The notes: generated by a model from the letters alone, not told the origin. A stretch of DNA of 64,000 nucleotides from an uncultured Mycoplasmatota bacterium (GCA_949288035.1 CASEIJ010000049.1:663-64662), one strand, 5' to 3'. Shown: positions 1,975 through 64,000, counted from the stretch's first letter. Numbers and translations are program-made.

Positions 1975-1984
1975 TCTATCCCCC

Positions 1985-3913
1985 CTATACATCTATCATT
2001 TCTGCGAATTTTGCATTTGTTTCAATAAAATTACGGCGTGGCTCTACTTCTTCTCCCATAAGTTGAGAAAATACTTGATCTGCTCGAACCATATCATCCA
2101 CAGTGATTTGTCTTAATACACGTTTATGAATATCCATAGTCGTTTCATTTAATTCTTCAGCATCCATTTCTCCTAAACCTTTCATACGAGCAATCTCATA
2201 TTTTGTGTTTGGATTTAAACTTGCAATATATTCGTCTCTTTCGGCTTCATTTAATACATATTTAATTGTTTTACCATGCTTAATAACGAATAAAGGTGGT
2301 TGAGCTGCATAAACATGTCCGGCCTCTACAATTGGTCTAAAAAAGCGGTAAAATAGCGTTAAAAGAAGTACTCGAATATGTGATCCATCAACGTCAGCAT
2401 CGGTCATAATAATAATTTTGTCATATCTAAGTTTTGATAAATCAAACTCTTCTCCAATACCAGTACCAAAAGCAGTAATAATTGTTCTAATCTCTTCATT
2501 TCCCAAAGCACGATCTAATCTTGCTTTTTCGACATTTAAAATCTTTCCACGTAATGGAAGAATTGCCTGTGTCATACTATCTCTACCTTTAATTGCACTA
2601 CCTCCAGCAGAATCTCCCTCAACTAAGAAAATCTCACATTCACTTGCATCCTTACTCTTACAATCAGATAATTTTCCCCACGTATTAGTCATATCTAAAT
2701 CACCTTTACGGCGCGTTAATTCACGAGCACGTTTTGCAGCCACTCTAGCTTTCGCTGCAAGCATTGCTTTTTCAATAATTGCTTTCGCTTGATTTGGATT
2801 TTCAAGCAAAAATCTTTCTAATCCTTCTCCAAATATACTAGAAGCAATTTTACGAACTTCAGAATTTCCTAATTTTGTTTTTGTTTGCCCTTCAAATTGA
2901 GGATCTGGATGCTTACAAGAAACAATTAATGTTAGTCCTTCTTTCACATCTTCAGAACTTAAATTATCATCTTTTTCTTTTAATATGTTATTTTTTCTAG
3001 CATAATTATTTAAAACACGAGTTAAAGCCATTCTAACACCATCTTCATGGGTTCCACCTTCTGGCGTATGGATATTATTTACAAATGAATAAACGCTAGC
3101 AGAATATCCAGTATTATATTGTAATGCAGCTTCAATACTAATATCGTTTTCTACACCACCTATATGAATAATACTTTCATGAATTGGTGTTTTATTTTTA
3201 TTTAAAAACTTAACATATTCACTTAATCCACCTTCATAAACAAACTCTTCTCTTTTCTTCTCTGCTTCATTTCTATCATCACACAAAATAATACGAAGTC
3301 CTTTATTTAAGAAAGCGAGTTCCCTTACTCTTTCCTTTAAAATATCATAATCAAAAGACGTTGTTTCTGTAAAAATAGTCGGATCTGGTTTAAAAGTAAC
3401 CGTCGTACCAGTTCTGTCCATATCACAGTCACCAATCACTTTTAAACGATCAACTGCTTTTCCTCCATTTTCAAAGCGAATAAAGTAAATTTTTCCACCT
3501 TGATATACTTTTACTTCTACCCAACTACTTAATGCATTAACAACAGATGCTCCTACCCCATGAAGGCCGCCTGATACTTTATATCCACCGCCTCCGAACT
3601 TACCACCAGCATGTAATACTGTATAAACTGTTTCTACAGTTGAAATACCAGTTTTTGGATGGATACCTGTTGGAATACCACGTCCGTCATCTTTAACTGT
3701 GACTGATTCATCTTTATTAACAATAATTTCAATATCATCACAATATCCTGCCAACGCTTCATCTATTGCATTATCCACTATTTCCCATACCAAATGATGT
3801 AAGCCACGAGAACTTGTAGAACCAATATACATACCAGGACGTTTTCTAACTGCTTCTAACCCTTCTAACACTTGAATATCAGAAGCATTATAATGTTCAA
3901 TTTTTTCTTCCAT
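1985..3913 (-). CDS. gyrB: DNA gyrase subunit B
   Basis: 642 aa. Motifs [51 protein letters not shown] and [10 protein letters not shown] are classic GHKL/Toprim GyrB signatures. Confidence 0.97.
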
Positions 3914-3916
3914 AAT

Positions 3917-5029
3917 TTACACCTCATCTTTACTGATTAATTTTCCATCATGAATATGAATTAAAGATGCATTTTCAATTAATTTTGAATCTAATAATTC
4001 TAATTCAGTTGTTGTTATAATTGTTTGTGTATCATGATTAATATGTTTTAGTAAATTATTTCTTTTATGAAAATCCAATTCACTAAAAACATCATCCAAT
4101 AATAAAATCGGAGTATCTTTCTTATAATCTTGAAACAATTTGATTTCAGCTAATTTTAAGGAAAGTACAGCCATTCTTTGTTGTCCTTGAGAACCATACA
4201 ATTTTAATAAATTGCCATTTAACAGAAATTCTAACTCATCTTTATGTGGTCCAACTAAGGTAACCCCCAATCTTTTTTCCGTTTCATGATGCTTTTTTAA
4301 TTTATCTAACAATTGTGATTGGTAAGTATTTTGGCTTAATAAATCAATATTTGTATGATAATTCAAGGAAAATCCATTCAATCCTGATATATCTTTAAAT
4401 ATTTCAGGTATATATTGATTTAATTTATCAACAAATTTTTTACGCATTTTATAAATTAAACCAGCTTTATCTGTAAAATATTGATCTAAAATTGAAAGAT
4501 AACTTTCATCCACATATTCACCCTTTACATATTGTTTTAAACAATCATTTCTCATTTTCAATAATTTATTATAATCATTTAAAACATCTAAATAGGTGGT
4601 ATATAATTGTGATAATTCAAGATTCATAAATCTTCTACGTAGAGATGGGCCTCCCTTAATTAAATCTAAATCTTCTGGATAAAAAATAATAAGATTCATA
4701 TGAGAAATGTAGTCACTTATTTTTTTTATCTCATTATGATCAATTTTTAATAATTTTTTAGTTTTAGAAATTCCTAACTCTAATGTAGTAGTTTGATCTT
4801 GGAAAACAACATTCCCTTGAATATAAGCAGTAGACTCATCTTTTTGAATTAATGTATTATCAATAAAAGATCTATGAGATTTTGTCATTCCCAATACATA
4901 AATTGCTTCTAATAAATTTGTTTTTCCTTGAGCATTATTTCCATAAATAATATTCACAGAGGGTTGAAACGAAACTTGAAAGTCATCATAATTACGAAAA
5001 TGACTTACATAAATATTTTTTAAATACAT
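3917..5029 (-). CDS. recF: DNA replication/repair protein RecF
   Basis: MYLKNIYVSHFRNY..., Walker A GNNAQGKTNLLEA, and LLLDDVFSELD. The start was moved from the GTG at 5050, which lies inside the GAGGGAGG SD, to the ATG at 5029. Confidence 0.93.
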   Translation of the reverse strand: MYLKNIYVSHFRNYDDFQVSFQPSVNIIYGNNAQGKTNLLEAIYVLGMTKSHRSFIDNTLIQKDESTAYIQGNVVFQDQTTTLELGISKTKKLLKIDHNEIKKISDYISHMNLIIFYPEDLDLIKGGPSLRRRFMNLELSQLYTTYLDVLNDYNKLLKMRNDCLKQYVKGEYVDESYLSILDQYFTDKAGLIYKMRKKFVDKLNQYIPEIFKDISGLNGFSLNYHTNIDLLSQNTYQSQLLDKLKKHHETEKRLGVTLVGPHKDELEFLLNGNLLKLYGSQGQQRMAVLSLKLAEIKLFQDYKKDTPILLLDDVFSELDFHKRNNLLKHINHDTQTIITTTELELLDSKLIENASLIHIHDGKLISKDEV

Positions 5030-5160
5030 ATCCTCCCTCTTTTCCACCAAAAACGCTGTTATTTTGAGTTTACTATATAAAAGGTACTCCTATACACACT
5101 TACTATTATACCACATATAAGCGGCAAAAAATAAAAAAACAAGTAAAATTACCTGTTTTT

Positions 5161-5610
5161 TTATAATATTTTTCTTTTTCTCAAGACTGATTCTAATTTG
5201 GTAGCTCTTAATATTTGATTTTCTAGCGAACCATATGAAATATCTAATTCAACATTTTTACCACATTGAAAATATAAAATAGATTTTTCTTCATAACGAA
5301 TATGATTTTTAACATGATTTAAAGCTATCCAAGCACATTTAGGAAATCTTGGAGAAGCAGTTGGAAAAAAAATAATGGATTGCGTTTCCTCAATAATAAT
5401 TGGTGCTTTATAATTGATACCAGTTAAATGTTTGGTTCCTGCATGTCTTCCTAGATAAGAACTTCCAAATGAACGACAACTATAGTCAATAATTTGACTA
5501 GGAGTTTTATTCACTAAAAAACTATCTTGTCTCTCTAAAACTTTTGTAACATGCGTACCAACAGGTAGCAAAGCTAGTGTATTTGAATTAACTTCATATT
5601 CATTTACCAT
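5161..5610 (-). CDS. ComK-family competence transcription factor-like protein
   Basis: By eye it aligns along its whole length to B. subtilis ComK as I remember it: YEVN..T.A.LP, SCRSFGSSYLGRHAGT, KAPIII, IFFPTASPRFPKCAWI, ISYGSLENQ. The track GTG at 5619 is part of the GGAGGTGA SD, so I use the ATG at 5610. Confidence 0.75.
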   Translation of the reverse strand: MVNEYEVNSNTLALLPVGTHVTKVLERQDSFLVNKTPSQIIDYSCRSFGSSYLGRHAGTKHLTGINYKAPIIIEETQSIIFFPTASPRFPKCAWIALNHVKNHIRYEEKSILYFQCGKNVELDISYGSLENQILRATKLESVLRKRKIL

Positions 5611-5708
5611 TTTTTTCACCTCCTCTATTAATAATGTTCGACAAAAGATGTCGAATGTCCTTTACTTTATCAAAAAAAAGTGAAAAAAATGTCATTTTAT
5701 GTCAAAAC

Positions 5709-5733
5709 ACAAAAAAAAGAACATAATGTTCTT
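5709..5733 (-). terminator. Rho-independent terminator after dnaN
   Basis: Arms AAGAACA (5717-5723) and TGTTCTT (5727-5733) are followed on the minus strand by a T-run (plus-strand A-run 5709-5716). It overlaps the dnaN stop. Confidence 0.55.
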
Positions 5734-6854
5734 TAATATGTACGGATTGGTAAAATCAATTGTATTAAATTATCACTCTCAGGATTTTTAAGAATAATTG
5801 GTTTAATTTCACCATTAAATAATAGCTCTACTTCTTCACTTTCAAATGATTTCAATGCATCCATCATATATTTACTACTAAATGCGATTTTTATCTCTTG
5901 ATCATGATTTTTTTGTACATTTAATTTTTCTTCTACATTACCAATTTCTGGAATATTAGATGAGACAATAATTTCATTTCCTTTACTTTGTAATTTTATT
6001 GTATTTTTATCTGCTTCATTTGTTAATAAAGATGCACGGTCAATAGAATTAAAGAAATCTCTGTAATTAACACGCATCGTTAATTCAAATTCCGTTGGAA
6101 TTAATTTTGATGTATTTGGATATGTTCCATTAATTAATCGAGACATCATAATAATAGAACTAAATTTAAATATAACTTTATTATTAAATACATGCATCTC
6201 TAATTGTTCATCTTCATCGTTAAATAAACGAATCAATTCGTTTAAATTTTTTGTAGGGATAACAATATCTGTTGCATCTTGTAATAAACTTTGGATTTCA
6301 ACGGTTTTTTTAGCTAAACGATAAGAATCCGTTGCTGTACATTCCAAAACATTTCCTTCAAAATGAAAATTAATGCCTGTCAAAATTGGTCTTGACTCTT
6401 GTGTTGAAGTAGCAAAAGATGTTTGTATAATAATATTTTTAAATAATTTTTGAGAAATATAAACAGGTGTTTTACTATCTTCTAATTCTAAATTAGGAAA
6501 TTCTGATACATTATTACAATTTAAATGAAATGAAGAATTTTGTGTATAAATATAAAGTTTTGAATCGACAACTTCTTCTATATTAATTAATTCGTTAGGT
6601 AATTTTCTAATAATTTCGTATATATATCTACCTGAAACAACAATTTCTCCTGTTGTGTCTATATTATCAATATCATTTTTATTAATAAATGTTTTTATAG
6701 CTACTTCATTATCAGTACTCATTAAATATAATCCATCATTTGTTAATTCAAATTTAATACAATTTAATATTGGTATTAAATTTTTGTTAGAAATTCCCCT
6801 AATTACATAATTTAAATGCTCCATTAATTTGTTTTGTTTAATTGTTAATTTCAT
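5733..6854 (-). CDS. dnaN: DNA polymerase III beta sliding clamp
   Basis: 373 aa starting MKLTIKQNKL; it ends ...LILPIRTY, typical of beta clamps. It sits directly downstream of dnaA. Confidence 0.95.
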   Translation of the reverse strand: MKLTIKQNKLMEHLNYVIRGISNKNLIPILNCIKFELTNDGLYLMSTDNEVAIKTFINKNDIDNIDTTGEIVVSGRYIYEIIRKLPNELINIEEVVDSKLYIYTQNSSFHLNCNNVSEFPNLELEDSKTPVYISQKLFKNIIIQTSFATSTQESRPILTGINFHFEGNVLECTATDSYRLAKKTVEIQSLLQDATDIVIPTKNLNELIRLFNDEDEQLEMHVFNNKVIFKFSSIIMMSRLINGTYPNTSKLIPTEFELTMRVNYRDFFNSIDRASLLTNEADKNTIKLQSKGNEIIVSSNIPEIGNVEEKLNVQKNHDQEIKIAFSSKYMMDALKSFESEEVELLFNGEIKPIILKNPESDNLIQLILPIRTY

Positions 6855-6906
6855 TGTGTATACCTTCTTTCTTGTATTTATTTTATAAATGTATTTATAT
6901 TATAAA

Positions 6907-6978
6907 AGTGGATAATGTGGAAAAAACAAAATATAGATGAAAAATAATATCAAAATACCATTTACTGATTGTGGATAA
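6907..6978. other. oriC, dnaA-dnaN intergenic DnaA-box cluster with adjacent AT-rich tract
   Basis: AGTGGATAA (6907-6915, 1 mismatch), TGTGGAAAA (6916-6924, 1 mismatch) and a perfect TGTGGATAA (6970-6978), against the consensus TTATCCACA/TGTGGATAA. A very AT-rich stretch lies at 6880-6906. Confidence 0.7.
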
Positions 6979-7006
6979 AAAGTATATAAAATTCTTTTTT
7001 ACACAC

Positions 7007-38758: not shown

Positions 38759-38855
38759 ATAAAAATACTTGCCAAATAATTAGAAATTTGATATATTATA
38801 TAAGTATTTATTATCTATGACATGAATTTGTCATGGCGGAAGGAGAGATTACAGT

Positions 38856-54140: not shown

Positions 54141-55757
54141 ATGTACGGAGAACATATGAGTTTAAAATTTCATTTGGAAACGATTTACGATGATGCATCA
54201 TTTCGCATTGAAAATAAAGATAAAGTAGGAATTGTTGGTGTCAATGGAGCAGGGAAAACAACTTTATTTAAGGTTATATTAAAGAAGGAAGAATTAAATC
54301 AAGGAAGAATTGTTATTCCTAGAAATACTAGAATTGGTTATTTACCCCAAGAAATTATATTAGAAGATAAAGATATAACTGTTTTTGACTATTTATTAAG
54401 TGCTCGTCCAATTGAAATGTTAAATAAAAAACTAGAACAATTATATATAGATGTAGCTGTAGCAAATGGTAAAGAACAAGATAAACTTTTAAAAGAGATT
54501 AGTAAAACACAAGAAAAATTAGAATATTATAATTGTTATGAAGCAGAAAGTATATTATTTACAATCATTAGTAATATGAATATAGATAGTGAATTGTTAG
54601 ATATGAAATTAAATGATTTATCAGGAGGACAAAAGTCAAAAATCGCATTTGCTCATCTTCTATATTCTGCTCCTGAAATCATGTTGTTAGACGAACCAAC
54701 TAACCATTTGGATGCAACAACAAGAGATTATATTACAAATTACTTAAAAAATTATAAAGGAATGGTTTTAATTATTTCTCACGATGTATCATTTTTAAAC
54801 GCCATTGTGAATAAAATTATGCATATTGATAAAGTAAGTCATAAAATAGAAATGTATCGTGGAAATTATAGTGATTATTTAAAAAAGAGTGAGAAACAAA
54901 AAGAATTAAAAGAAAGAATCATAGAACAGCAAGAAAAAGAGGTCGCAAAATTAAGAGAGTTTGTTTTACAATATTCTAATTCTTCTGGAAAAAGAAAAAG
55001 AATTGCGCAAAGTAGAGAAAAATTATTAGCAAAAAAAGAAAAAGATATGATAGAACGTGATAGGACATATAAACGAGTAAAATTACGTTTACAACCAGAA
55101 AGAGAAGGTTCTAAGATACCACTTAAAGTAAATAATATTTCTTTTGGATATCCAAACTCTAAAGAATTAATCCATAATTTATCATTTTTAATTAATAAAA
55201 AAGAAAGATTTTTAATTGTTGGAGAAAACGGAGTAGGGAAAAGTACCTTACTAAAACTATTAGTAGGAAAATTAAAACCATTGGAAGGTAATATTTGGTA
55301 TGGTAGTAAGACAGATATGGCTTATTATGCACAGGAACAAGAAACATTAGATTTAGATAAAACGGTTTTAGAAAATGTCATAAACCAATCCTATACGGAA
55401 AAAGAATTAAGAACAATCCTTGGAAGTTTTTTATTTCATGGGGATGATGTATTTAAAAAAGTAGCAGTGTTATCTCCTGGAGAAAAAGCAAGAATTGCTC
55501 TTTGTCAAGTGATGCTGAAACGAGCAAATTTACTGTTACTAGATGAACCAACTAACCATTTAGATCCAGAAACACAAGAATTAATTGGAGAGAATTTTAA
55601 AGACTATGAAGGTAGTATTATCTTAGTAAGTCATAATCCAAGTTTTGTAGAAGCAATTGGAATAGATCGTATGTTAATTCTACCCCAAGGAAAGATCACC
55701 AATTATTCCAAAGAATTGTTAGAATATTATTATAAATTAAATACCACACAAAAATAG
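54141..55757 (+). CDS. ABC-F family ATPase (two ABC domains, no TMD)
   Basis: GVNGAGKTT / LSGGQ / LLDEPTNHLD, then GENGVGKST / LSPGE / LLDEPTNHLD, with a charged inter-domain linker. The subfamily (housekeeping versus resistance) cannot be resolved by eye. Confidence 0.88.
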   Translation: MYGEHMSLKFHLETIYDDASFRIENKDKVGIVGVNGAGKTTLFKVILKKEELNQGRIVIPRNTRIGYLPQEIILEDKDITVFDYLLSARPIEMLNKKLEQLYIDVAVANGKEQDKLLKEISKTQEKLEYYNCYEAESILFTIISNMNIDSELLDMKLNDLSGGQKSKIAFAHLLYSAPEIMLLDEPTNHLDATTRDYITNYLKNYKGMVLIISHDVSFLNAIVNKIMHIDKVSHKIEMYRGNYSDYLKKSEKQKELKERIIEQQEKEVAKLREFVLQYSNSSGKRKRIAQSREKLLAKKEKDMIERDRTYKRVKLRLQPEREGSKIPLKVNNISFGYPNSKELIHNLSFLINKKERFLIVGENGVGKSTLLKLLVGKLKPLEGNIWYGSKTDMAYYAQEQETLDLDKTVLENVINQSYTEKELRTILGSFLFHGDDVFKKVAVLSPGEKARIALCQVMLKRANLLLLDEPTNHLDPETQELIGENFKDYEGSIILVSHNPSFVEAIGIDRMLILPQGKITNYSKELLEYYYKLNTTQK

Positions 55758-55785
55758 AAAGCTATGAATTCTTTCTATTTTTTTT
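55754..55785. terminator. Hairpin terminator between convergent ABC-F and ddl
   Basis: Arms ATAGAAAG (55754-55761) and CTTTCTAT (55771-55778), followed by T7. It overlaps the ddl 3' end. Confidence 0.55.
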
Positions 55786-56781
55786 GTAAGCATTTTCAAT
55801 TAAAATGGAGATTAGTTTCGAATAAGATATTCCATCTGCAATACATAATTGCGGATACATACTAATCTCTGTAAATCCTGGAAGTGTATTGATTTCATTT
55901 AAATATATTTTATTTTCATCTTCTTGATAAAAGAAATCAATTCTTGCAAGACCAGAACATTCTAACAATTGAAATGCTTTTTTAGCTATTTTTCTAATAT
56001 CTTCTTTGACAGTTGTTGATATATCAGTATTTATTTGCGTATAGGATTGGTTATTTTCATATTTCGCATCATAATCATAGAAAGAATTTGCAGAAAATAT
56101 TTCTCCAACAGATGATACATGAATCTCTTTTGTTTCTAATACCGCACATTCTAATTCATGTGCATGTATAAATTTTTCAATAAGTAATTTATGATCGAAC
56201 TGAAAAGCGTGATTGATCGCTTTAATACATTCCTTTCTATTGTTTGCTACTTCAATACCAATCGAAGAACCACCACGAGATGGCTTAATGATCATTGGAT
56301 AACCAATTGTTTGTTCTAACTCTTTGATAGAGTATTTATGATTGGTAATAGTTATATAAGGAACAACTGGAATATTATGTTCTTTTAATAATTCTTTTGT
56401 ACATACTTTATCAAAACATATCGCACTACTTTGTAAATTACATCCTACACACGGAATATTTAATAATTCACATAACCCTTGAATACATCCATTTTCTCCA
56501 TAAGCACCATGTAACATAGGAAAGACAACATCATATTTTTGTAGTTCATAACAAATATTTTCAATTTTATCATTTTTATGGTTATCCACCCATGTATGTT
56601 GAAAAATAGATTCAAAATCATGATCAAAACGATGCCATTCATTTTTCTCGTCAATATATATTGAATGAACATCATATTTCTTATCGTTAATTTCACGAAG
56701 TACAGACTCTGCAGAATGACAAGAAACAATATGTTCGGTAGAAGCTGTACCAAATAAAACAACAACTTTCTTCAATCTCAT
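55762..56781 (-). CDS. ddl: D-alanine--D-alanine ligase (ATP-grasp)
   Basis: VVVLFGTASTEHIVSCHSA, KPSRGGSSIGI and LNEINTLPGFT. I prefer the ATG at 56781, because the GTG at 56787 is inside the GAGGTGA SD. Confidence 0.9.
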   Translation of the reverse strand: MRLKKVVVLFGTASTEHIVSCHSAESVLREINDKKYDVHSIYIDEKNEWHRFDHDFESIFQHTWVDNHKNDKIENICYELQKYDVVFPMLHGAYGENGCIQGLCELLNIPCVGCNLQSSAICFDKVCTKELLKEHNIPVVPYITITNHKYSIKELEQTIGYPMIIKPSRGGSSIGIEVANNRKECIKAINHAFQFDHKLLIEKFIHAHELECAVLETKEIHVSSVGEIFSANSFYDYDAKYENNQSYTQINTDISTTVKEDIRKIAKKAFQLLECSGLARIDFFYQEDENKIYLNEINTLPGFTEISMYPQLCIADGISYSKLISILIENAYKKNRKNS

Positions 56782-56890
56782 TTTCACCTCTTTATTATAG
56801 TTTATGTAAAAAAATAAAGTCCTTTCCTAGTTTTAGGTAGATACCTATACATGATATAGCGAAGTACATATGCTAATATTGAGGGGGTAC

Positions 56891-57379
56891 ATGATGAATA
56901 ACTATGTAAATTACAATGAATGTGAAAGTAATTCATATTCAGACTGTGTTATGGATTTTACACAATCACGTTGGAATCCAGGTGTCTATAATGGAAATTT
57001 TACATCGGCAACAGATATAAATGAAGATCGTATGCCAAAACTATATAGTCCTTATGAAGGATATGTAAGAGGAAATTTATTTCCGTCGTTATATCAAGGA
57101 TATAAAAATATAAAACCATCTATCAAAGAGACAAATAATCAAAAGCAAGAATTATTATCTTATATTGGAGCATATGCTTTTGCAGCGCATGAATTAAATT
57201 TATATTTAGATAACTATCCAACTGACAGGGAAGCAGTCAAACAATATAAAAAATATCAAGAAGAGGCTTCAAAAGCGATGAAAGAATATGAGAAAATGTA
57301 TGGATCATTAACTGTTACTGGTGTGAATGCTCAAGATTGGACTTGGGTAAATGAACCATGGCCATGGGACAATAATTAA
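56891..57379 (+). CDS. Spore-coat CotJA-like/CotJB fusion protein
   Basis: The C-terminal half matches CotJB (FAAHELNLYLDNYPTD...YGSLT...DWTWVNEPWPWD). The N-terminal half carries a CotJA-like PKLYSPYEGYVRGNLFPSLYQGY segment. The GAGGGGG SD serves the ATG at 56891. Confidence 0.7.
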   Translation: MMNNYVNYNECESNSYSDCVMDFTQSRWNPGVYNGNFTSATDINEDRMPKLYSPYEGYVRGNLFPSLYQGYKNIKPSIKETNNQKQELLSYIGAYAFAAHELNLYLDNYPTDREAVKQYKKYQEEASKAMKEYEKMYGSLTVTGVNAQDWTWVNEPWPWDNN

Positions 57380-57390
57380 GGGGGTTATTT

Positions 57391-57951
57391 ATGTTTGCAT
57401 ATCAAAAAAGATTACAATTTCCAATTAATATCAAAAAGAAAGATTTGAAAATGGCAAAATTTTTATTATCGCAATATGGTGGTCCATATGGGGAACTAGC
57501 AGCAAGTTTGCAATATTTAAATCAACGTTTTAGTATGCCAGATGGAAGAGGGAAAGCCTTACTTACCGATATTGGAACTGAAGAATTAGGGCATATTGAA
57601 ATGATTTGTACAATGGTACAGCAATTAATGAAAGGTGCAACTCCAAAAGAATTAAAAGAAGCAGGATTAGGTGGTCACTATGCGCAATTTGATCATGCAC
57701 TATATCCAACCGATGCGAATGGAGTACCATTTACAATTACTTATATACAAGCTACAGGTGATGTAATTGCTGATTTAGAAAATAATATGGCTGCTGAACA
57801 AAGAGCACGTGCTACATATGAACATTTAATGGATTTAACAGACGATAAAGATGTATTAGATCCATTATCTTTTTTAAGACAAAGAGAAATTGTACATTAT
57901 GCTAGATTTAAAGAATTAAGAGATATTTATAAAAAAGAAATGAATAGATAA
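57391..57951 (+). CDS. cotJC: Spore-coat protein CotJC (manganese-catalase family)
   Basis: By eye it aligns end-to-end with B. subtilis CotJC: QYGGPYGELAASLQYLNQR, LTDIGTEELGHIEMI, AEQRARATY, FLRQREIVH. Confidence 0.9.
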   Translation: MFAYQKRLQFPINIKKKDLKMAKFLLSQYGGPYGELAASLQYLNQRFSMPDGRGKALLTDIGTEELGHIEMICTMVQQLMKGATPKELKEAGLGGHYAQFDHALYPTDANGVPFTITYIQATGDVIADLENNMAAEQRARATYEHLMDLTDDKDVLDPLSFLRQREIVHYARFKELRDIYKKEMNR

Positions 57952-58055
57952 ATAAAATGCAGACTTTTGTTCTGCGTTTTTTGTATGATGAAAAAATACT
58001 AGGGAAAAGAATATTTACTTTCTTTTTTTGCATATTAAAAATGAGGTGAGAAATC

Positions 58056-58793
58056 ATGAGAAAATATATATTAATTGTTTCTGTTGTAATCATTTTAAGT
58101 GTAATCACAGCTTGTGTCGGACAAACAACGAATTTAGTATTAAAAGATATTACTGGAATTCGTTATCAAGATCATCCAGTACATGAAAAAGATTTTAAAC
58201 AAATAGAAAAATTGATTTCTCAGATTAAATTTCAGAAAATTAAAATGAAAGTGAAAGATGATCGAACGATTTTAATTACTACAAAAGATAATATTTATCA
58301 CTTTGAAATAGGTGATAATTATCGCATGAAATATACGATTAATGAGGCATCTTACTATTCGAAAGATGAGGGACATATTAAGAATTTATTGGATTATTTA
58401 GAAGGATTACCGGGTAAATATGAATCACAGGCATATTATTATGCGAAAATAGATGAGAAATACGAGAAGAAAAAGGATGATGTGTTTATAAAAATGGAAG
58501 CCGATGGAGAACATGAAACACAAGTTGCAATTGAAGCCAAAGAAGATATTTATCAATTAAGAGTACACGAAATTGAATATGATAAGGAGACAGAGAGTTA
58601 TCAAGATATAAATCTTGTGAAAGATAGTAATAAAGTGAAAGCAGGAAAGCAAATTGTGGTAAAAGGGAAGATTAGTAATGTTCCAATGTGGAGAATTGAA
58701 ATAGAAAATCAATATGGGTATAAGACGACTTTCCTACCATATTATGATGAAGTAAAAAAAGAAGTTATGTTAAAAAGAGAGATGAATACATAG
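58056..58793 (+). CDS. Hypothetical lipoprotein
   Basis: Lipobox LSVITAC after a signal peptide, with a strong SD (GAGGTGA). No family recognised. Confidence 0.6.
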   Translation: MRKYILIVSVVIILSVITACVGQTTNLVLKDITGIRYQDHPVHEKDFKQIEKLISQIKFQKIKMKVKDDRTILITTKDNIYHFEIGDNYRMKYTINEASYYSKDEGHIKNLLDYLEGLPGKYESQAYYYAKIDEKYEKKKDDVFIKMEADGEHETQVAIEAKEDIYQLRVHEIEYDKETESYQDINLVKDSNKVKAGKQIVVKGKISNVPMWRIEIENQYGYKTTFLPYYDEVKKEVMLKREMNT

Positions 58794-58877
58794 CTTCTTT
58801 TTTGTATGTAAATAGAGAAAATTACAGTATATGTTTAGTTTTTATGTATATTATAATTGTATTTTTATAAAAAATAC

Positions 58878-58906
58878 TTGCGAAAATAGAGTATTACTGA
58901 TAAAAT
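58878..58906 (+). promoter_or_regulatory. Extended -10 sigma-A-type promoter for tRNA-His
   Basis: TTGCGA (58878-58883), a 17-nt spacer, then TGaTAAAAT (58898-58906), 19 nt upstream of the tRNA 5' end. Confidence 0.55.
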
Positions 58907-58925
58907 AGTATTTGTCAAATGACAT

Positions 58926-59002
58926 GGCGGTATTGGTGAAGTGGTTAACACGGCTGACTGTGACTCAGTTATGCATCGGTTCGAATCCGATATACCGCCC
59001 CA
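58926..59002 (+). tRNA. tRNA-His (anticodon GTG) with encoded G-1 and CCA
   Basis: Hand-folded. G-1 at 58926 pairs with C73. The acceptor stem is GCGGTAT/ATACCGC, the anticodon arm is GCTGA-CTGTGAC-TCAGT (anticodon GTG), and the T arm is ATCGG-TTCGAAT-CCGAT. The 3' CCA is at 59000-59002. Confidence 0.9.
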
Positions 59003-59013
59003 AAATAGAGTTG

Positions 59014-59039
59014 AACTAGGGAATAATCCTAGTTTTTTT
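59014..59039 (+). terminator. Rho-independent terminator after tRNA-His
   Basis: Arms AACTAGG (59014-59020) and CCTAGTT (59028-59034), followed by a T-run. Confidence 0.65.
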
Positions 59040-59174
59040 GTGCCTTAAAGTTAATAAAACATAAAGATGATGAGCTATTTTATTATGTATAGAAAAGCTT
59101 TTTGCAACTTTGTTGATTTACTATTTAGTATGATACATGCTATAATAATGAAGGAAAATGTTAGGTGAAGTTAT

Positions 59175-60011
59175 ATGAGTGAAAAAGATTTAGATTCTAG
59201 TATGAATCCATATCAAGAAAAACAAAAGCCTAAGGGTTATATAAAACAATTACAATGGGATATGGCGATTGGATTACAACAAGTAGATAATTTAAAACCA
59301 TCTAAATATCTTGAACAGATTAGTGAAAAAAATATTTCAGGTGAATTAACAATCAAAGAAGTAGAACAAAGTTTAAGAAAATATTACACTACAAAAGAAA
59401 AACAAAAAGATATTAATCATAATGAATTAGAATGCGACTTTGTATCTATGAGAATTGTTGAACTGTTAAATCAAGATAATTTCGAATTATCAGTAGATTA
59501 TCTAAAATATATTTATAAATATTTATTTCAAGATGTTTATGAATTTGCAGGAGAATTTAGAAAAATTGATTTCTCTAAACATGAAAAAATATTAAATAAC
59601 GATTCAGTTGCTTATGGAGATTCTAAAACATTAACAGAATCATTAGAATATGATATTAGTCAAGAAAAAGAAAAGAATTATAAAGATATGTCCATTGTAG
59701 AAGTGATTAAAAATATTACTGATTTTACATCTAGTATATGGCAAGTACATCCCTTTAGAGAAGGTAATACTAGAACAACAGCAGTATTTATAGAAAAATA
59801 TTTAGTTAGTTTAGGATACAATGTAGATAACTCATTATTCAAAGATAAATCAGTATATTTTAGAAATGCATTAGTTAGAAGTAATTACTTTAATAATTAT
59901 TTAAATATAAAAGAGGATAAAAGTTATTTAATTAAGTTTTATGAGAATTTATTATTAGGTAAAAATAATAATTTACATTCTGAAGATTTGATTGTAAAAG
60001 AGTTATTTTAG
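59175..60011 (+). CDS. Fic/Fido-domain protein with an N-terminal VbhA-like helix module and a non-canonical active-site motif
   Basis: The Fic motif reads HPFREGNTRTTA against the canonical HxFx(D/E)GNGRxxR. The N-terminal GLQQVDNLKPS...ISGELTIKEVE resembles the VbhA/alpha-inh module. There is a strong SD and a TGcTATAAT extended -10 at 59138-59146. Confidence 0.8.
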   Translation: MSEKDLDSSMNPYQEKQKPKGYIKQLQWDMAIGLQQVDNLKPSKYLEQISEKNISGELTIKEVEQSLRKYYTTKEKQKDINHNELECDFVSMRIVELLNQDNFELSVDYLKYIYKYLFQDVYEFAGEFRKIDFSKHEKILNNDSVAYGDSKTLTESLEYDISQEKEKNYKDMSIVEVIKNITDFTSSIWQVHPFREGNTRTTAVFIEKYLVSLGYNVDNSLFKDKSVYFRNALVRSNYFNNYLNIKEDKSYLIKFYENLLLGKNNNLHSEDLIVKELF

Positions 60012-60021
60012 GAGGGGTACT

Positions 60022-60339
60022 ATGCAAGAGTTAACAAAAAAAATTAAAGAGTTTAATGAAGAACGTGACTGGGATCAATTTCATAGTCCTGAAAATTTGG
60101 CAAAATCAATATCAATAGAAGCAGGAGAATTATTGGAATGTTTTCAATGGAATTCTAATTATAATATTAAAGAAGTAAAATCAGAACTTGCAGATGTAAT
60201 TAACTATGCATTATTGCTGGCAGATAAATTAGGAGTGGATCCTGAGAAAATTGTTTTGGATAAAATGAAAATTACAGCAAAAAAGTATCCAATAGAAAAA
60301 GCTAAAGGAGTAAGTACAAAATATACAAAGTTAAAATAA
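60022..60339 (+). CDS. MazG-like all-alpha nucleoside-triphosphate pyrophosphohydrolase
   Basis: 105 aa with RDWDQFHSPENLAKSISIEAGELLECFQW and ELADVINYALLLA (metal-binding E/D ladder). AGGAGGGG SD; it starts 10 nt after the Fic stop. Confidence 0.8.
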   Translation: MQELTKKIKEFNEERDWDQFHSPENLAKSISIEAGELLECFQWNSNYNIKEVKSELADVINYALLLADKLGVDPEKIVLDKMKITAKKYPIEKAKGVSTKYTKLK

Positions 60340-60367
60340 GTTTTTAATATAGTAAGGAGTATGCAAA

Positions 60368-62245
60368 ATGTTAGTGTATGAAGGAGTAAAATCAAGTTTT
60401 ATTAATGATGTCAACTTAAATCTCATTGTAAATAAAATTTATGAAAAATATCAAAAATATTTTGGAAGAACAAGTGATTCTCAATTAAACTCGTGGAAAA
60501 ATTCTATGCAATATATGCGAGGTGTATTAGATGACAATGAAATACCAGACAATGCAGGAGTAGCTATTGAATTTAATATTCCAACGACTTCTAAAAGAAT
60601 AGACTTTATTCTATCTGGTAGAGATAGAAATAAAAAAGATTCTGTTATTATTATAGAACTAAAGCAATGGGAAAAATGTGACGCAGTAGAAGGAAAAGAC
60701 GGAATTGTTTCTACTTTTACTGGGCATGCAATAAGAGAAGTTACACATCCGTCATATCAAGCTATGAGCTATGCTAATTTAATTAAAGACTTTAATGAAA
60801 CAGTGCAGTTAGAAGATATAGGTTTATATCCTTGTGCTTTTCTACATAACTATGTATTAAATGAAGATGATCCAATTTGCAGTAGTCAATATCAAGAATA
60901 CATAAAAGAAGCTCCAATGTTTGGGGCTAATGATTTTATGAAACTAAGAAGTTTTATAAAAAGATATATTCTTGAGGGTGATGATAGAGAAACTTTATAT
61001 AAAATTGAAAATGGGAAAATAAGACCATCCAAAAGACTACAAGACTCACTTACTACAATGTTACAAGGCAATAAAGAGTTCAACATGATTGATGAGCAGA
61101 AAGTAATCTATGAAGATGCTATTAGAATGGCTATAGATACTTTATCAGCAAATGAGAAAAATGTATTGGTTGTACAAGGAGGACCAGGTACCGGGAAATC
61201 AGTTTTAGCAATTAATTTATTGGTTGAACTTACTAACAGAAATATGACTTGTTTCTATGTAACCAAGAATGCAGCGCCAAGGGCGGTCTTTAGAGATAAA
61301 TTAAAAGGCTCGTTTAAAATGACATATATTAATAATTTATTTCAAGGATCAGGACAGTTCACAGAAGCCGAAAGCAATGAAGTTGATTGTTTGATTGTAG
61401 ATGAAGCGCATAGATTAAATGCGAAATCTGGAATGTTCCAAAACTTAGGAGAAAATCAAATTAAAGAGCTTATCAATGCTTCCAATTTTTCAATATTCTT
61501 TATTGATGAAGACCAAAAAGTTACACTAAAAGATATTGGTTCAGTAGATGAAATAAAGAAATATGCTAAAGAATTAAATGCAGGAATAAAAATAGTAGAG
61601 CTAGAAAGTCAATTTAGATGTAATGGATCTGATGGATATCTTGCTTGGTTAGACAATGTTTTAGATATAAGAAAAACGGCAAATTTCGATGGTATGGACT
61701 TCGACTATGATTTTAGAGTAGTAGATAATCCGAATGAACTAAGAAAATTAATAGAAGAAAAAAATAAAATAAATAATAAGTCAAGATTAGTTGCTGGATA
61801 TTGTTGGGATTGGATTAGTAGTGGTAAAAATGATTCTAATGTTCATGATATAGTTATTCCAGAATACAATTTTGAAATGAGTTGGAATTTAGGAAATTCA
61901 CAAACATGGGCAATTGATCCTTTGTCAATAAACGAAGTAGGGTGTATCCATACATGTCAAGGGTTAGAATTCGACTATGTAGGAGTAATAATAGGTGAGG
62001 ATATTAGATATGAAAATGGAAAAATTATTACAGATTACACAAAAAGAGCTAAAACAGATCAATCATTAAAAGGAATTAATAAAATTGCCAAAGAACAAGG
62101 TCAAGAAGTAGCAAATCAAATAGCAGATAAAATAATAAAAAATACATATAGAACTTTAATGACAAGGGGAATGAAAGGTTGCTATGTATATTGTATAGAC
62201 AAAAAATTACAACAATATTTAAAAAATAAAATTAGAATAAATTAA
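60368..62245 (+). CDS. DUF2075-type protein: N-terminal PD-(D/E)xK-like nuclease core fused to an SF1/Schlafen-like P-loop NTPase
   Basis: RIDFILSG...SVIIIELKQWEK (D...ExK pattern), Walker A VQGGPGTGKSVLA, Walker B CLIVDEAHRL, CIHTCQGLEFDYVGVIIG and LMTRGMKGCYVY. It starts 28 nt after the MazG stop. Confidence 0.8.
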   Translation: MLVYEGVKSSFINDVNLNLIVNKIYEKYQKYFGRTSDSQLNSWKNSMQYMRGVLDDNEIPDNAGVAIEFNIPTTSKRIDFILSGRDRNKKDSVIIIELKQWEKCDAVEGKDGIVSTFTGHAIREVTHPSYQAMSYANLIKDFNETVQLEDIGLYPCAFLHNYVLNEDDPICSSQYQEYIKEAPMFGANDFMKLRSFIKRYILEGDDRETLYKIENGKIRPSKRLQDSLTTMLQGNKEFNMIDEQKVIYEDAIRMAIDTLSANEKNVLVVQGGPGTGKSVLAINLLVELTNRNMTCFYVTKNAAPRAVFRDKLKGSFKMTYINNLFQGSGQFTEAESNEVDCLIVDEAHRLNAKSGMFQNLGENQIKELINASNFSIFFIDEDQKVTLKDIGSVDEIKKYAKELNAGIKIVELESQFRCNGSDGYLAWLDNVLDIRKTANFDGMDFDYDFRVVDNPNELRKLIEEKNKINNKSRLVAGYCWDWISSGKNDSNVHDIVIPEYNFEMSWNLGNSQTWAIDPLSINEVGCIHTCQGLEFDYVGVIIGEDIRYENGKIITDYTKRAKTDQSLKGINKIAKEQGQEVANQIADKIIKNTYRTLMTRGMKGCYVYCIDKKLQQYLKNKIRIN

Positions 62246-62469
62246 CATAACAAAAATTTGAGATTTTCTCCAACTAGATTAAATATACATTACACAATTG
62301 TGTTTCCTTGACAAAAAGGAAAGTTTATTTGAAGTACTCAATTGGACTGTTATATATAATTGTTAAATATGATTTTATTGCCGTTACAATAAGAAAATAG
62401 CTTTTTTTGCAGATAAAGGAGGCAAGCTTTTACGCACTGTGAAGATATTGCGAAATTTATTAAATAATT

Positions 62470-62500
62470 AAAAAAGTAGTGAGATTCAAACTCACTACTT
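62470..62500 (-). terminator. Hairpin terminator after the DUF2188 gene
   Basis: Arms AAGTAGTGAG (62474-62483) and CTCACTACTT (62491-62500). The plus-strand A-run at 62470-62473 gives the minus-strand T-run. Confidence 0.6.
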
Positions 62501-62514
62501 TACTTTAATTTTTT

Positions 62515-62739
62515 CTATCCTCGTGGTGGATAGGGATCGTTACCATAGGAATTACTGCCTTGAATTTTTCCGTTTAATCCGTGAATAATAAGTTCGCTTT
62601 GTTGATTTTGTGCAATTCTCTTTCCTACTTTAATAGCTTGTTCTTTTGTAGAAAGTATATGGCTAGGTTTAGAATTTCCGGCCCCTAATACATTCCATCC
62701 GCCGTTCGGATTATGAGTAATATGGTAATTTTTACCCAT
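62515..62739 (-). CDS. DUF2188-family small protein
   Basis: MGKNYHITHNPNGGWNVLGAGNSKPSHILSTKEQAIKVGKRIAQNQQSELIIHGLNGKIQ..., the DUF2188 pattern. The AAAGGAGG SD serves the ATG at 62739; the upstream part of the track ORF lacks coding character. Confidence 0.75.
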   Translation of the reverse strand: MGKNYHITHNPNGGWNVLGAGNSKPSHILSTKEQAIKVGKRIAQNQQSELIIHGLNGKIQGSNSYGNDPYPPRG

Positions 62740-62974
62740 AAATATATATCCTCCTTTATCTGCCAAAACTAAAAATTGCTTTTTAGAAAAAGAATGTGAT
62801 ATAATTATGTTGCGGAGAATAACCATATCACTTGGCTATTTTCTTTTTTTGTCTTAAGACAATACTATTTTAACATCAAGAGTGGAGCAAAGTCAATATA
62901 AAAAAGTTAAAAAAGTTTTCTAAAACGCTTTACTTTGTCCCAGAAAAACACTAAAATAATAGTAGGTGATAAAT

Positions 62975-64000
62975 ATGAAAAAAATTGATGTTATTAACTT
63001 AATCAAATACTATTCAGAAAAGAATGATTATGCTTTTAGAAATGAAGCATACAAAATTGCACATGATTTTGATAAAGAAGGAGATATACAACTTGCAGAA
63101 TATATTATGGCCTTGTTATCAGATACCAATACATTTGTTCCGCAGTCTTATGATTATTTATCTACTTTTTTTGAAAAAGTAGAAATTACAAATTCTTCTT
63201 TACCATTGCCAGAAGTAATTAAAAATGATATTTTGGGTATCATTAATGCAATTGGACATAATGTTGGTATTAATAAGTTTCTATTTGAGGGGCTACCGGG
63301 GACTGGAAAAACAGAAAGTGTAAAACAGATTGCAAGAATATTAAATAGAGAATTATATATATCTAACTTTGATGCAATTATTGATAGCAAATTAGGTCAA
63401 ACTTCTAAAAATATTTCTAAAGCATTTAATGAAATTAATAAATTACCACACCCAGAAAAAATAATAATTTTATTTGATGAAATAGATGCATTAGCCATGG
63501 ATAGAATGAATAATAATGATTTGCGAGAGATGGGGAGAGCTACTTCCACTTTGTTAAAAGAACTTGATAAGTTAAATGAAAATATTGTTTTAATTGCTAC
63601 TACTAATCTATTTGAATCATTTGATAAGGCGTTAATTAGAAGGTTTGATGCGGTAATTAATTTTAACAGATATAAAAAAGAGGATTTAATTGATGTGGCA
63701 GAATCCATTTTAAATGAATATTTGGAAAAAATAACATGGGCTGCCAAAGATATAAAATTATTTAGAAAAATAGTTGGTTTAATGAACCCATTGATTTACC
63801 CTGGAGATTTGAAAAACATAATTAAAACTTCATTAGCATTCAGCAATCCATCCAATCAATATGATTATTTAATTAGATTATATGAAGCGATTACATCGAA
63901 AAAAATTAATGGTAATATTAAAATACTGCAAGAGCAGAAATTTACCGTTAGAGAAATAGAACATTTAACTGGAATTTCAAAAAGTCAAGTTTCTAGGGGG
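62975..64000 (+). CDS. AAA+ ATPase (classic AAA clade) with a helical N-domain and a C-terminal HTH-like segment; 3' end runs off the window
   Basis: Absent from the ORF track (no in-window stop). I read 342 open codons from the ATG at 62975 after TAGGTGA. Motifs: Walker A FEGLPGTGKTES, Walker B IIILFDEIDAL, sensor-1 LIATTN, Arg region ALIRRFD, and near the end REIEHLTGISKSQVSR (HTH-like). Confidence 0.8.
   Translation, partial: MKKIDVINLIKYYSEKNDYAFRNEAYKIAHDFDKEGDIQLAEYIMALLSDTNTFVPQSYDYLSTFFEKVEITNSSLPLPEVIKNDILGIINAIGHNVGINKFLFEGLPGTGKTESVKQIARILNRELYISNFDAIIDSKLGQTSKNISKAFNEINKLPHPEKIIILFDEIDALAMDRMNNNDLREMGRATSTLLKELDKLNENIVLIATTNLFESFDKALIRRFDAVINFNRYKKEDLIDVAESILNEYLEKITWAAKDIKLFRKIVGLMNPLIYPGDLKNIIKTSLAFSNPSNQYDYLIRLYEAITSKKINGNIKILQEQKFTVREIEHLTGISKSQVSRG

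Follow-up and report, generated by a model that had tools for sequence, protein, structure and literature searches.

Three co-directional genes stand close together beside a tRNA gene in an uncultured gut bacterium; do they make up one defence system, or is a smaller unit embedded among them? The question is raised by positions 59,003-62,245 of a 64,000-nucleotide stretch of DNA from an uncultured Mycoplasmatota bacterium (GCA_949288035.1 CASEIJ010000049.1:663-64662; hereafter the window, meaning the whole stretch), where genes for a Fic protein, a small MazG-like nucleoside triphosphate (NTP) pyrophosphatase, and a nuclease-helicase with a DUF2075 domain follow a tRNA-His gene (Table 1). An earlier note on this DNA had proposed the three as a single, undescribed defence or toxin module. 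Its coordinates, spacings, and motifs for the three open reading frames (ORFs) hold (the tRNA-His gene starts at 58927, not 58926), as do its three domain calls (Fic, MazG-type, and PD-(D/E)xK plus DUF2075/Schlafen-like), which Pfam supports and which, for the nuclease, are backed by motifs and an AlphaFold2 (AF2) model. The single module does not stand: a near-identical Fic gene precedes five other cargos, and homology to them stops at the Fic stop codon. What is co-inherited across phyla is the pair formed by the MazG-like and DUF2075 genes, not the trio, and the helicase partner carries either a PD-(D/E)xK or a GIY-YIG head. In the explanation that we favour, and to which as a whole we assign a probability of roughly 55%, the locus belongs to a defence island, the pair acts as a unit, the Fic gene is separate from it, and the pair would act on modified DNA and modified deoxynucleoside triphosphates (dNTPs).

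A conserved pair of pyrophosphatase and nuclease-helicase genes

Gene neighbourhoods were tabulated for 84 loci, namely 80 from GTDB genomes (one genome per species), three from metagenomes, and the window itself; compared loci carry L-numbers and protein family representatives P-numbers. The DUF2075 proteins in this table are 58-98% identical to that of the window, and their hosts include Bacilli, Clostridia, Saccharibacteria, Methanobrevibacter, and Thermoplasmatota. A MazG-like gene is a same-strand neighbour of the DUF2075 gene in 73 of the 84 loci: immediately upstream in 32, upstream with an insert of 124-3532 nucleotides in 34, and immediately downstream in 7, while in 11 loci no MazG-like homologue was found. 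The reverse search, in which 80 metagenome loci were found with an alignment of the MazG-like protein, left 61 informative loci, and a same-strand DUF2075 helicase gene lies beside the MazG-like gene in about 55 of them. Of the neighbour relations considered in the earlier note, the pair is thus conserved and the full trio is not. About half of the DUF2075 partners in the reverse search have the window-type PD-(D/E)xK head and about half do not; seven of the latter were examined and have a GIY-YIG-type motif instead, which Pfam confirmed in one. Fusions of GIY-YIG to DUF2075 paired with the same MazG-like subfamily were seen in L128 (4977-6698), L137, L160, L093, L120, and L141. At L115 (4202-8106), one and the same MazG-like gene lies between a PD-(D/E)xK-DUF2075 gene and a GIY-YIG-DUF2075 gene.

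The identities of the MazG-like and DUF2075 proteins to their window copies are correlated across 66 loci (Spearman 0.81, p = 3e-16), and the pairing is kept far from the window sequence: at 55% identity in a Microcystis record, at 52% on a Marivirga plasmid, at 41.5% on a Priestia plasmid, and at 40% in P0311, which has two tandem DUF2075 genes. On Bacillus cereus plasmid pb1 (L183 1211-4803), where the DUF2075 protein is 25% identical, its gene is preceded by genes for a PRA-PH-type all-alpha NTP pyrophosphatase and an HNH_4 protein. The MazG-like and DUF2075 genes very probably form a functional unit. About 70 Bacillus plasmid records match the query.

So tight an arrangement could also reflect regulation, with the MazG-like protein serving as regulator or antitoxin of a toxic nuclease-helicase, through binding or through destruction of an activating nucleotide signal, and the two together forming an abortive-infection pair. 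The distance between the genes ranges from gaps of 46 nucleotides down to 13-nucleotide overlaps in 39 of the 84 loci, the two proteins co-diverge, the genes can swap order and still remain adjacent, and complexes are reported to be common in nuclease-NTPase systems (bioRxiv 10.1101/2025.07.10.664194); each of these points would fit such a role. However, the unrelated gene inserted between the two in 34 loci loosens translational coupling, the replacement of the MazG-like enzyme by a PRA-PH-type enzyme in B. cereus is better explained by a catalytic role common to both enzymes than by a specific binding interface, and an interrupted MazG-like gene is tolerated in L001. We regard a regulatory or antitoxin role as distinctly improbable.

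In those 34 loci, the space between the MazG-like and DUF2075 genes holds a variable gene. The types classified are DUF4145 with a zinc ribbon, HEPN_AbiU2, ApeA HEPN, Hypoth_Ymh, HNH_2, DpnII-MboI, and a predicted membrane protein (examples are L003 9227-9988, L035 9388-9996, L024 5370-5936, L063 1078-2847, L025 9202-9990, and L036 9291-9989). The classified genes are stand-alone effectors typical of abortive-infection genes, and the interval is a cargo slot within the operon. A stand-alone HEPN or nuclease gene is likewise embedded in an operon in the case of PrrC in EcoprrI and of the Abi/anticodon-nuclease genes in Type I restriction loci; here, by contrast, no Type I restriction-modification operon serves as host, and a guard relationship would be an analogy with those loci. 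As in defence-island hotspots flanked by conserved genes, cargo is swapped here at a fixed junction beside a conserved gene.

The first gene of the pair encodes a protein with the MazG-like motif EAGELLE at residues 33-39, together with E55 and D58, and the metal-binding residues E33, E36, E55, and D58 (ExxE ... ExxD) are invariant in 19 diverse MazG-like homologues. Among solved structures, those nearest to it are of an archaeal pyrophosphatase (4qgp, 1.4e-16) and of DCTPP1/RS21-C6 (1.8e-16), and no PADLOC v2 model, those for nucleotide depletion included, matches it at E ≤ 0.01. By its sequence, gene 2 is a MazG-like all-alpha NTP pyrophosphatase of the DCTPP1/RS21-C6 kind, with the four acidic metal ligands kept. 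DCTPP1 prefers 5-modified dCTP. It is a eukaryotic housekeeping enzyme, whereas the gene for its window homologue is mobile, belongs to a defence island, and is tied to a nuclease-helicase. At L122, L125, and L127 (~3900-7000), a conserved array consists of genes for a Y-family polymerase (IMS), YolD, a MazG-like protein, and a 220-residue protein, with no DUF2075 gene.

In the second gene, the nuclease residues E68, D79, E97, and K99 (the last two forming E97-L-K99) are invariant in 77 sequences down to 31% identity, and so are the Walker A motif GGPGTGKS (271-278) and the Walker B motif DEAH (345-348). The AF2 model of the protein (predicted local distance difference test score, pLDDT, 91.9; predicted template modelling score, pTM, 0.87) places the nuclease residues on an alpha-beta-beta-beta-alpha-beta core typical of PD-(D/E)xK enzymes. 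It should be noted that this confident model was obtained with an alignment of 50%-cluster representatives and that a shallow alignment of 86-97% identical sequences gave a pLDDT of 42. Assignment of the nuclease fold rests on motif and model because Pfam shows only weak similarity to NERD in the N-terminal domain (4 of 21 members matched, best E 0.0028, within the N-terminal 250 residues). Foldseek comparison of the full model with the Protein Data Bank (PDB) returned DSH9, SLFN11, RecD2, Dna2, Upf1, and Dda at E 6e-10 to 4e-7; these matches are dominated by the helicase, and the nuclease fold was not independently matched. PDB sequence searches with the 625-residue protein and with the family profile gave P-loop-level matches only, with no close solved structure, and an exact look-up of the protein found no identical record.

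The family to which the nuclease-helicase belongs is large, with 832 clusters at 50% identity at E ≤ 1e-30 and 4680 at E ≤ 1e-3. Sixteen of its 150 best representatives are longer than 700 residues (700-1068 residues; P0268, P0271, P0273, P0274, and 12 others). The four long tails that were read look like C-terminal Peptidase_S24/LexA-like domains, one of them confirmed by Pfam (PF00717, 4.7e-10), which hints at control by RecA- or DNA-damage-triggered self-cleavage. The long members had also been considered as fusions to a MazG-like domain (a 'Rosetta stone'), a possibility rejected on the S24/LexA-type appearance of the extension.

An N-terminal nuclease joined to a DUF2075 helicase is the architecture called 'Nhi-like' (Millman et al. 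2022), after Nhi of Staphylococcus epidermidis (Bari et al. 2022). The likeness of the window protein to this class is one of architecture, a PD-(D/E)xK-type nuclease and a DUF2075/superfamily 1B (SF1B) helicase being combined in one polypeptide, and the defence-island setting is shared as well. Nhi and Nhi-like proteins were published as single genes, whereas the window type has a conserved MazG-like partner and often a variable gene in between. Among the PADLOC models, AbiO (PDLC02350, 2e-18, residues 235-499) and Nhi (PDLC02372, 1.4e-16, residues 240-420, model positions 183-332 of 470) match the helicase part only and leave the nuclease domain of the window protein uncovered. The candidate PDC-S41 (8.7e-18) covers residues 7-312, that is, the nuclease domain and the P-loop, and probably represents the same broad family; it is a computational single-gene candidate with no partner gene defined. 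The word 'undescribed' in the earlier note can therefore not be kept for gene 3, with its Nhi-like architecture and its AbiO, PDC-S41, and Nhi matches, nor for the Fic gene, which matches the PADLOC candidate PDC-S72; the MazG-like partnership alone appears to be new. The literature searched, the coverage of which was incomplete, yielded no paper naming a MazG-type enzyme together with DUF2075, Nhi-like, or Schlafen proteins (absence of evidence only), none, in a search aimed at 5-methyl-dCTP, that ties the hydrolysis of modified dCTP to Type IV restriction, and no mention of a conserved pyrophosphatase partner, interchangeable nuclease heads, an internal cargo slot, or a Fic leader cassette. 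DUF2075/Nhi-like proteins, bacterial relatives of the human Schlafen helicases, are catalogued as single-gene defences; their annotation, and the way in which they are reconstituted, would change with a conserved pyrophosphatase partner such as was observed in Bacillota, Bacteroidota, Cyanobacteria, Saccharibacteria, and Archaea.

Fic as a separable leader cassette

The Fic gene follows a different course. It is present in 17 of the 84 DUF2075 loci and absent from 67, and in the reverse set it is present in 3 of the 80 MazG-like loci and absent from 77. Five independently sampled Fic clusters, 92-96% identical to the window Fic, each lie 10-64 nucleotides upstream of other cargo: an N6/N4 methyltransferase with a helicase and an Eco57I-type enzyme (L168); a 1590-residue Type ISP enzyme (L169, L170); a Dam-like methyltransferase with HNH and Gabija genes (L171-L173); an 800-residue protein with a DndC-like phosphoadenosine phosphosulfate (PAPS) reductase (L184-L188); and a Dam methyltransferase with an 835-residue protein (L189). 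Across these genomes (L168-L173, L184-L189), Fic and its -10 element make up a cassette of ~880 bp (window 59134-60011) that is 88-94% identical, with nucleotide homology to the window starting at 59134-59156 and ending at 60008-60015, at the stop codon. The cassette always holds the first gene, ahead of differing restriction or defence cargo. One of the loci, L189, is collinear with the window at 90.0% identity over 55185-60008 (cotJ, the 245-residue gene, the tRNA region, and Fic), and there too homology ends at the Fic stop codon. Fic and the pair have moreover diverged in a decoupled manner: as the identity of DUF2075 drops from 86% to 63%, that of Fic remains at ~80-83%.

These data bear directly on the proposal that Fic, MazG-like, and DUF2075 proteins make up a single defence or toxin system of three components, with modification of proteins, a change in the nucleotide pool, and a nuclease-helicase that would act together. 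In the window, the genes are indeed separated by gaps of 10 and 28 nucleotides behind a single good promoter with no internal terminator, the trio recurs in its 17 loci always in the same order, and a different helix-turn-helix (HTH)-Fic gene is found near the module in five other loci. Set against this are the absence of Fic from most loci of either gene of the pair, the five near-identical Fic clusters that all lead other cargos, the homology break exactly at the Fic stop codon, and the decoupled divergence. A single three-gene system is very unlikely, and Fic is a separable leader cassette that stands outside the MazG-like/DUF2075 pair.

The Fic protein itself carries the motif HPFREGNTRTTA at residues 192-203 (nucleotides 59748-59783), which is invariant in 15 homologues and departs from the canonical Fic AMP-transferase motif HxFx(D/E)GNGRxxR in having Thr for the second Gly and Ala for the last Arg. 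No inhibitory helix motif, (S/T)xxxE(G/N), was found on reading the 278-residue protein, and no gene lies between the tRNA and Fic. The match to PDC-S72 is strong (1.6e-83). Membership of the SoFic class was considered and rejected: the SoFic hidden Markov model gives E = 0.0038 and 14.6 bits, with no stretch passing by itself.

The window Fic is 44% identical over 242 residues (E 7e-60) to a Fic2-type plasmid protein of Campylobacter fetus. The motif of Fic2 is HPFREGNTRTIA, and the degenerate form HPFREGNTRT(I/T)A is common to it and the window Fic. C. fetus Fic2 acts as a toxin in E. coli and perturbs the assembly of ribosomes, and either Fic1 or Fti3 neutralises it (PMC5651007). On the C. 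fetus plasmids the Fic1 gene abuts fic2, whereas the window Fic is preceded by a tRNA gene and a promoter instead. A 200-residue AbiEi_4 protein, an antitoxin-type HTH protein, is encoded in eight other loci, in six of them directly before Fic (L014, L015, L018, L024, L028, and L031). The window has no AbiEi_4 gene; its product may be the partner that the Fic2-type protein lacks there.

We propose that Fic would be a Fic2-type, non-AMPylating, toxin-like protein whose gene is a portable first gene before many restriction or defence cargos; in the window it would probably provide the operon promoter, with no mechanistic tie to the pair. What sets it apart from PDC-S72 and Fic2 as previously known is its position, in the window and its relatives, as the constant leader of variable defence cargo. 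Such a gene may serve as a portable promoter-and-toxin 'leader' through which exchangeable defence cargos are mobilised or stabilised at tRNA hotspots. For the mining of gut metagenomes for new cargo, it is useful that this defence hotspot combines a fixed recombination junction with a leader gene that is portable.

How the pair might act

In the mechanism that we favour, the 625-residue protein would work as Nhi-like proteins do, as an ATP-driven SF1B translocase that brings its nuclease to phage DNA, and this DNA would probably carry a base modification. The DCTPP1-like MazG-like enzyme would hydrolyse modified dNTPs, for example 5-methyl- or 5-hydroxymethyl-dCTP, and so keep salvaged modified nucleotides out of host DNA, such that the host is not targeted; the same hydrolysis could also starve phages that build modified DNA. 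Hydrolysis of modified dNTPs is proposed because of the substrate preference of DCTPP1, an overlap with an MrcB_N-domain gene, the pairing of NUDIX genes with Type IV restriction enzymes, and the way in which phages escape Nhi-like proteins. On a Priestia aryabhattai plasmid (L086 2960-6866), mutT is followed by an MrcB_N-domain gene, the MazG-like gene (the two overlap by 4 nucleotides), the DUF2075 gene, and Type I restriction-modification genes. The MrcB_N domain belongs to McrB-type readers of modified cytosine. Islands that hold the module also contain a parallel pair, in which a NUDIX gene (PADLOC PDC-S07, 9e-42) lies beside a gene for a Type IV methyl-directed restriction enzyme (1e-118), at L045 (6856-9985), L035, L049, and L054. 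Phages escape Nhi-like proteins by loss of a phage DNA methylase (bioRxiv 10.1101/2022.08.27.505566).

Drawn as it is from genomic context, this modified-dNTP 'hygiene' mechanism is tentative, and we would rate it as rather less likely than not. It offers a testable route from gene pairing to mechanism, in which hydrolysis of modified dNTPs is coupled to restriction of modified DNA, and it bears on how type-IV-like nucleases spare their host when modified nucleotides are salvaged. A wider idea, that an NTP pyrophosphatase plus a nuclease is a general and unrecognised design for modification-dependent immunity with the dNTP 'pool-hygiene' enzyme as an obligate partner, is doubtful; under such a design, host DNA may never gain the mark sensed by the nuclease, and phages may be unable to build protected genomes. 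The forms of pairing seen are a MazG-like or PRA-PH enzyme with DUF2075, a NUDIX protein with a Type IV restriction enzyme, and, in some loci, an HD-domain gene beside the module.

The same enzyme could act on canonical substrates. In that case the nuclease-helicase would sense infection and the MazG-like protein, as the effector, would hydrolyse canonical dNTPs or NTPs and thereby starve the replication of the phage, as in the dCTP deaminase and dGTPase defences. The intact and invariant catalytic residues of the MazG-like protein, its kinship with dNTP pyrophosphatases, and the HD and NUDIX hydrolase genes that accompany the module in L067 and L080 are in keeping with nucleotide depletion. 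However, a 105-residue enzyme with no regulatory domain would deplete dNTPs constantly, the invariant nuclease site retained by the partner means that the latter is more than a sensor, the PADLOC models for nucleotide depletion do not match the MazG-like protein, and DUF2075 members at 34% identity occur without a pyrophosphatase partner. Depletion of canonical nucleotides is, on this evidence, unlikely.

A role outside defence was also weighed, namely that mobile elements carry the pair as a module for DNA repair or replication stress, one that would combine cleaning of the dNTP pool with a Schlafen- or Dna2-like nuclease-helicase. The LexA/S24-like tails among the long family members, the Y-family polymerase and YolD genes beside some MazG-like homologues, and the presence of Dna2 among the structural matches all speak for it. 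Yet defence genes predominate overwhelmingly around the module (Gabija, ietAS, restriction-modification systems, HEPN/Abi genes, and Type IV restriction enzymes), its architecture equals that of an experimentally defensive protein class, and the locus bears the signatures of hotspot turnover and horizontal transfer. We consider repair the least probable of the readings weighed here.

Several observations weigh against the favoured explanation, according to which the pair is a defence unit acting on modified DNA and dNTPs and Fic is separate from it. The first concern the pair: five of the 11 loci lacking a MazG-like homologue are flanked by over 2 kb of sequence at each end (the rest mostly have a short flank on at least one side), and one DUF2075 family member, 34% identical to that of the window, stands alone, so that the MazG-like partner is not needed in every case. 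Some close MazG-like homologues adjoin a Y-family polymerase and YolD instead. In L001 (9650-9971), the MazG-like gene is split into ORFs of 46 and 68 residues while the DUF2075 gene is intact; L002, from a sister sample, carries the gene whole, and the split copy is either a pseudogene or an assembly error. As to Fic, no Fic1-type antitoxin gene is present in the window beside the Fic2-type protein. The contextual basis of the hygiene mechanism counts on the same side.

The tRNA-His hotspot and its neighbouring genes

As the earlier note had it, content switches to accessory or defence-type cargo directly after tRNA-His, and the site is a hotspot where relatives carry different cargo: tRNA-His precedes the island in L001, L002, L004, L006-L008, L011, and L169-L172, and the cargo differs among them. 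The left flanks of L006 and L008 are 98.2% identical, with Fic in one and a 702-residue gene in the other, and their MazG-like/DUF2075 alleles are 90.6% identical. Between genomes whose flanking cotJC genes are only ~73% identical, the Fic-MazG-DUF2075 block is 92-97% identical, which points to recent horizontal exchange. L004 (5972-6137) and L005 (5566-5844) have, ahead of the full Fic gene, additional partial copies of its 5' part, and where Fic is missing the last 24-48 nucleotides of it remain before the MazG-like gene (L008 9594-9640, L011 9620-9645); these copies and remnants resemble scars left when cargo was exchanged through recombination inside Fic or beside it. The right flank is metK in L001 and L004. 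No recombinase or integrase ORF is present in 59003-64000, the far end of the island lying outside the window, and neither the window nor eight related loci showed a direct repeat of at least 14 nucleotides of the tRNA-His 3' end (an attachment site); in other loci, the module has serine recombinases at its flanks.

Upstream of tRNA-His lie cotJB, cotJC (for a Mn-catalase-type protein), and a gene for a 245-residue protein; this segment (window 56870-58793) is inverted in L006, L008, and L001 relative to the window and L189. The closest genomes are uncultured gut 'Bacilli'/Mycoplasmatota-like metagenome-assembled genomes (among them Candidatus Pelethosoma, Fimihabitans, and Ventrenecus). With PADLOC matches on four neighbouring genes, we take it with high confidence that a defence island starts here, in a Bacilli/Mycoplasmatota-like genome from the gut. 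This start of the island holds four independent modules: the Fic cassette with its own promoter, the MazG-like gene with PD-(D/E)xK-DUF2075, DUF2188, and, probably, ietAS.

Table 1. Annotated features at and around the tRNA-His locus (positions counted from the first nucleotide of the window)
Feature	Position	Strand	Basis and remarks
tRNA-His (GTG)	58927-59002	+	ARAGORN; Rfam 65.1 bits; left edge of variable defence island
Terminator-like hairpin 3' of tRNA-His	59013-59035	+	9-bp stem, then T-run
Promoter-like site TTTACT-18-TGcTATAAT, extended -10	59117-59146	+	Top-scoring in region; 10/12 positions plus TG
Fic gene	59175-60011	+	278 residues; Pfam PF02661, 2e-11
MazG-like gene	60022-60339	+	105 residues; Pfam PF12643, 6.5e-20; first gene of conserved pair
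Nuclease-helicase gene	60368-62245	+	625 residues; Pfam PF09848 (SLFN-g3_helicase/DUF2075), 2.6e-108
PD-(D/E)xK-type nuclease domain	60368-61060	+	Residues ~1-230 of the 625-residue protein; motif and AF2 model
DUF2075/Schlafen-group-3 SF1B helicase domain	61085-62245	+	Residues ~240-625; PF09848 over 264-611
Bidirectional terminator-like hairpin	62473-62501	both	11-bp stem; closes operon and convergent DUF2188 gene
DUF2188 gene	62515-62826	-	PF09954, 1.5e-20; PADLOC candidate PDC-S16, 6.5e-32; neighbouring cargo outside the pair
IetA AAA ATPase of ietAS	62972-64000, runs past window end	+	Frame translation; PADLOC IetA, 8.8e-43

Each of the three ORFs has a purine-rich ribosome-binding site, and no T-run terminator-like site lies between the genes, the next after the tRNA's own being the bidirectional hairpin. 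The extended -10 promoter that had been described ahead of Fic is the best site in the region, and its -10 element falls inside the Fic-cassette block conserved across other genomes, the homology of which starts at 59134-59156; a consensus scan, however, counted 37 promoter-like sites in the region and 37.0 in shuffled sequence, so that the scan alone is insufficient to establish a promoter. The site is probably the promoter of the Fic cassette and, in the window, of the whole three-gene transcript; that the three genes are transcribed together is likely.

Beyond the operon, the DUF2188 gene probably starts at Met30 (nucleotide 62739), since the Pfam, PADLOC, and PHROG matches all begin at residues 30-34; DUF2188 was found in 3 of the 84 DUF2075 loci. 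A TG-extended promoter-like site with a good score lies ahead of this gene at 62896-62867. L004 is 96.6% identical to the window up to 64000, and the gene that follows in L004 clusters with L019:5904-8132, which matches IetS at 6.9e-65; given this and the IetA match in the window, an ietAS system probably adjoins the three-gene locus, with IetS past the end of the window. Two minus-strand ORFs at 63154-63747 (78 and 116 residues) were rejected as genes, since they lie across the frame of IetA and are in all likelihood spurious. An Rfam scan found no regulatory RNA in the locus; elsewhere in the window, an L31-Firmicutes ribosomal-protein leader (Rfam RF03156, 36.9 bits) lies on the plus strand at 38815-38845.

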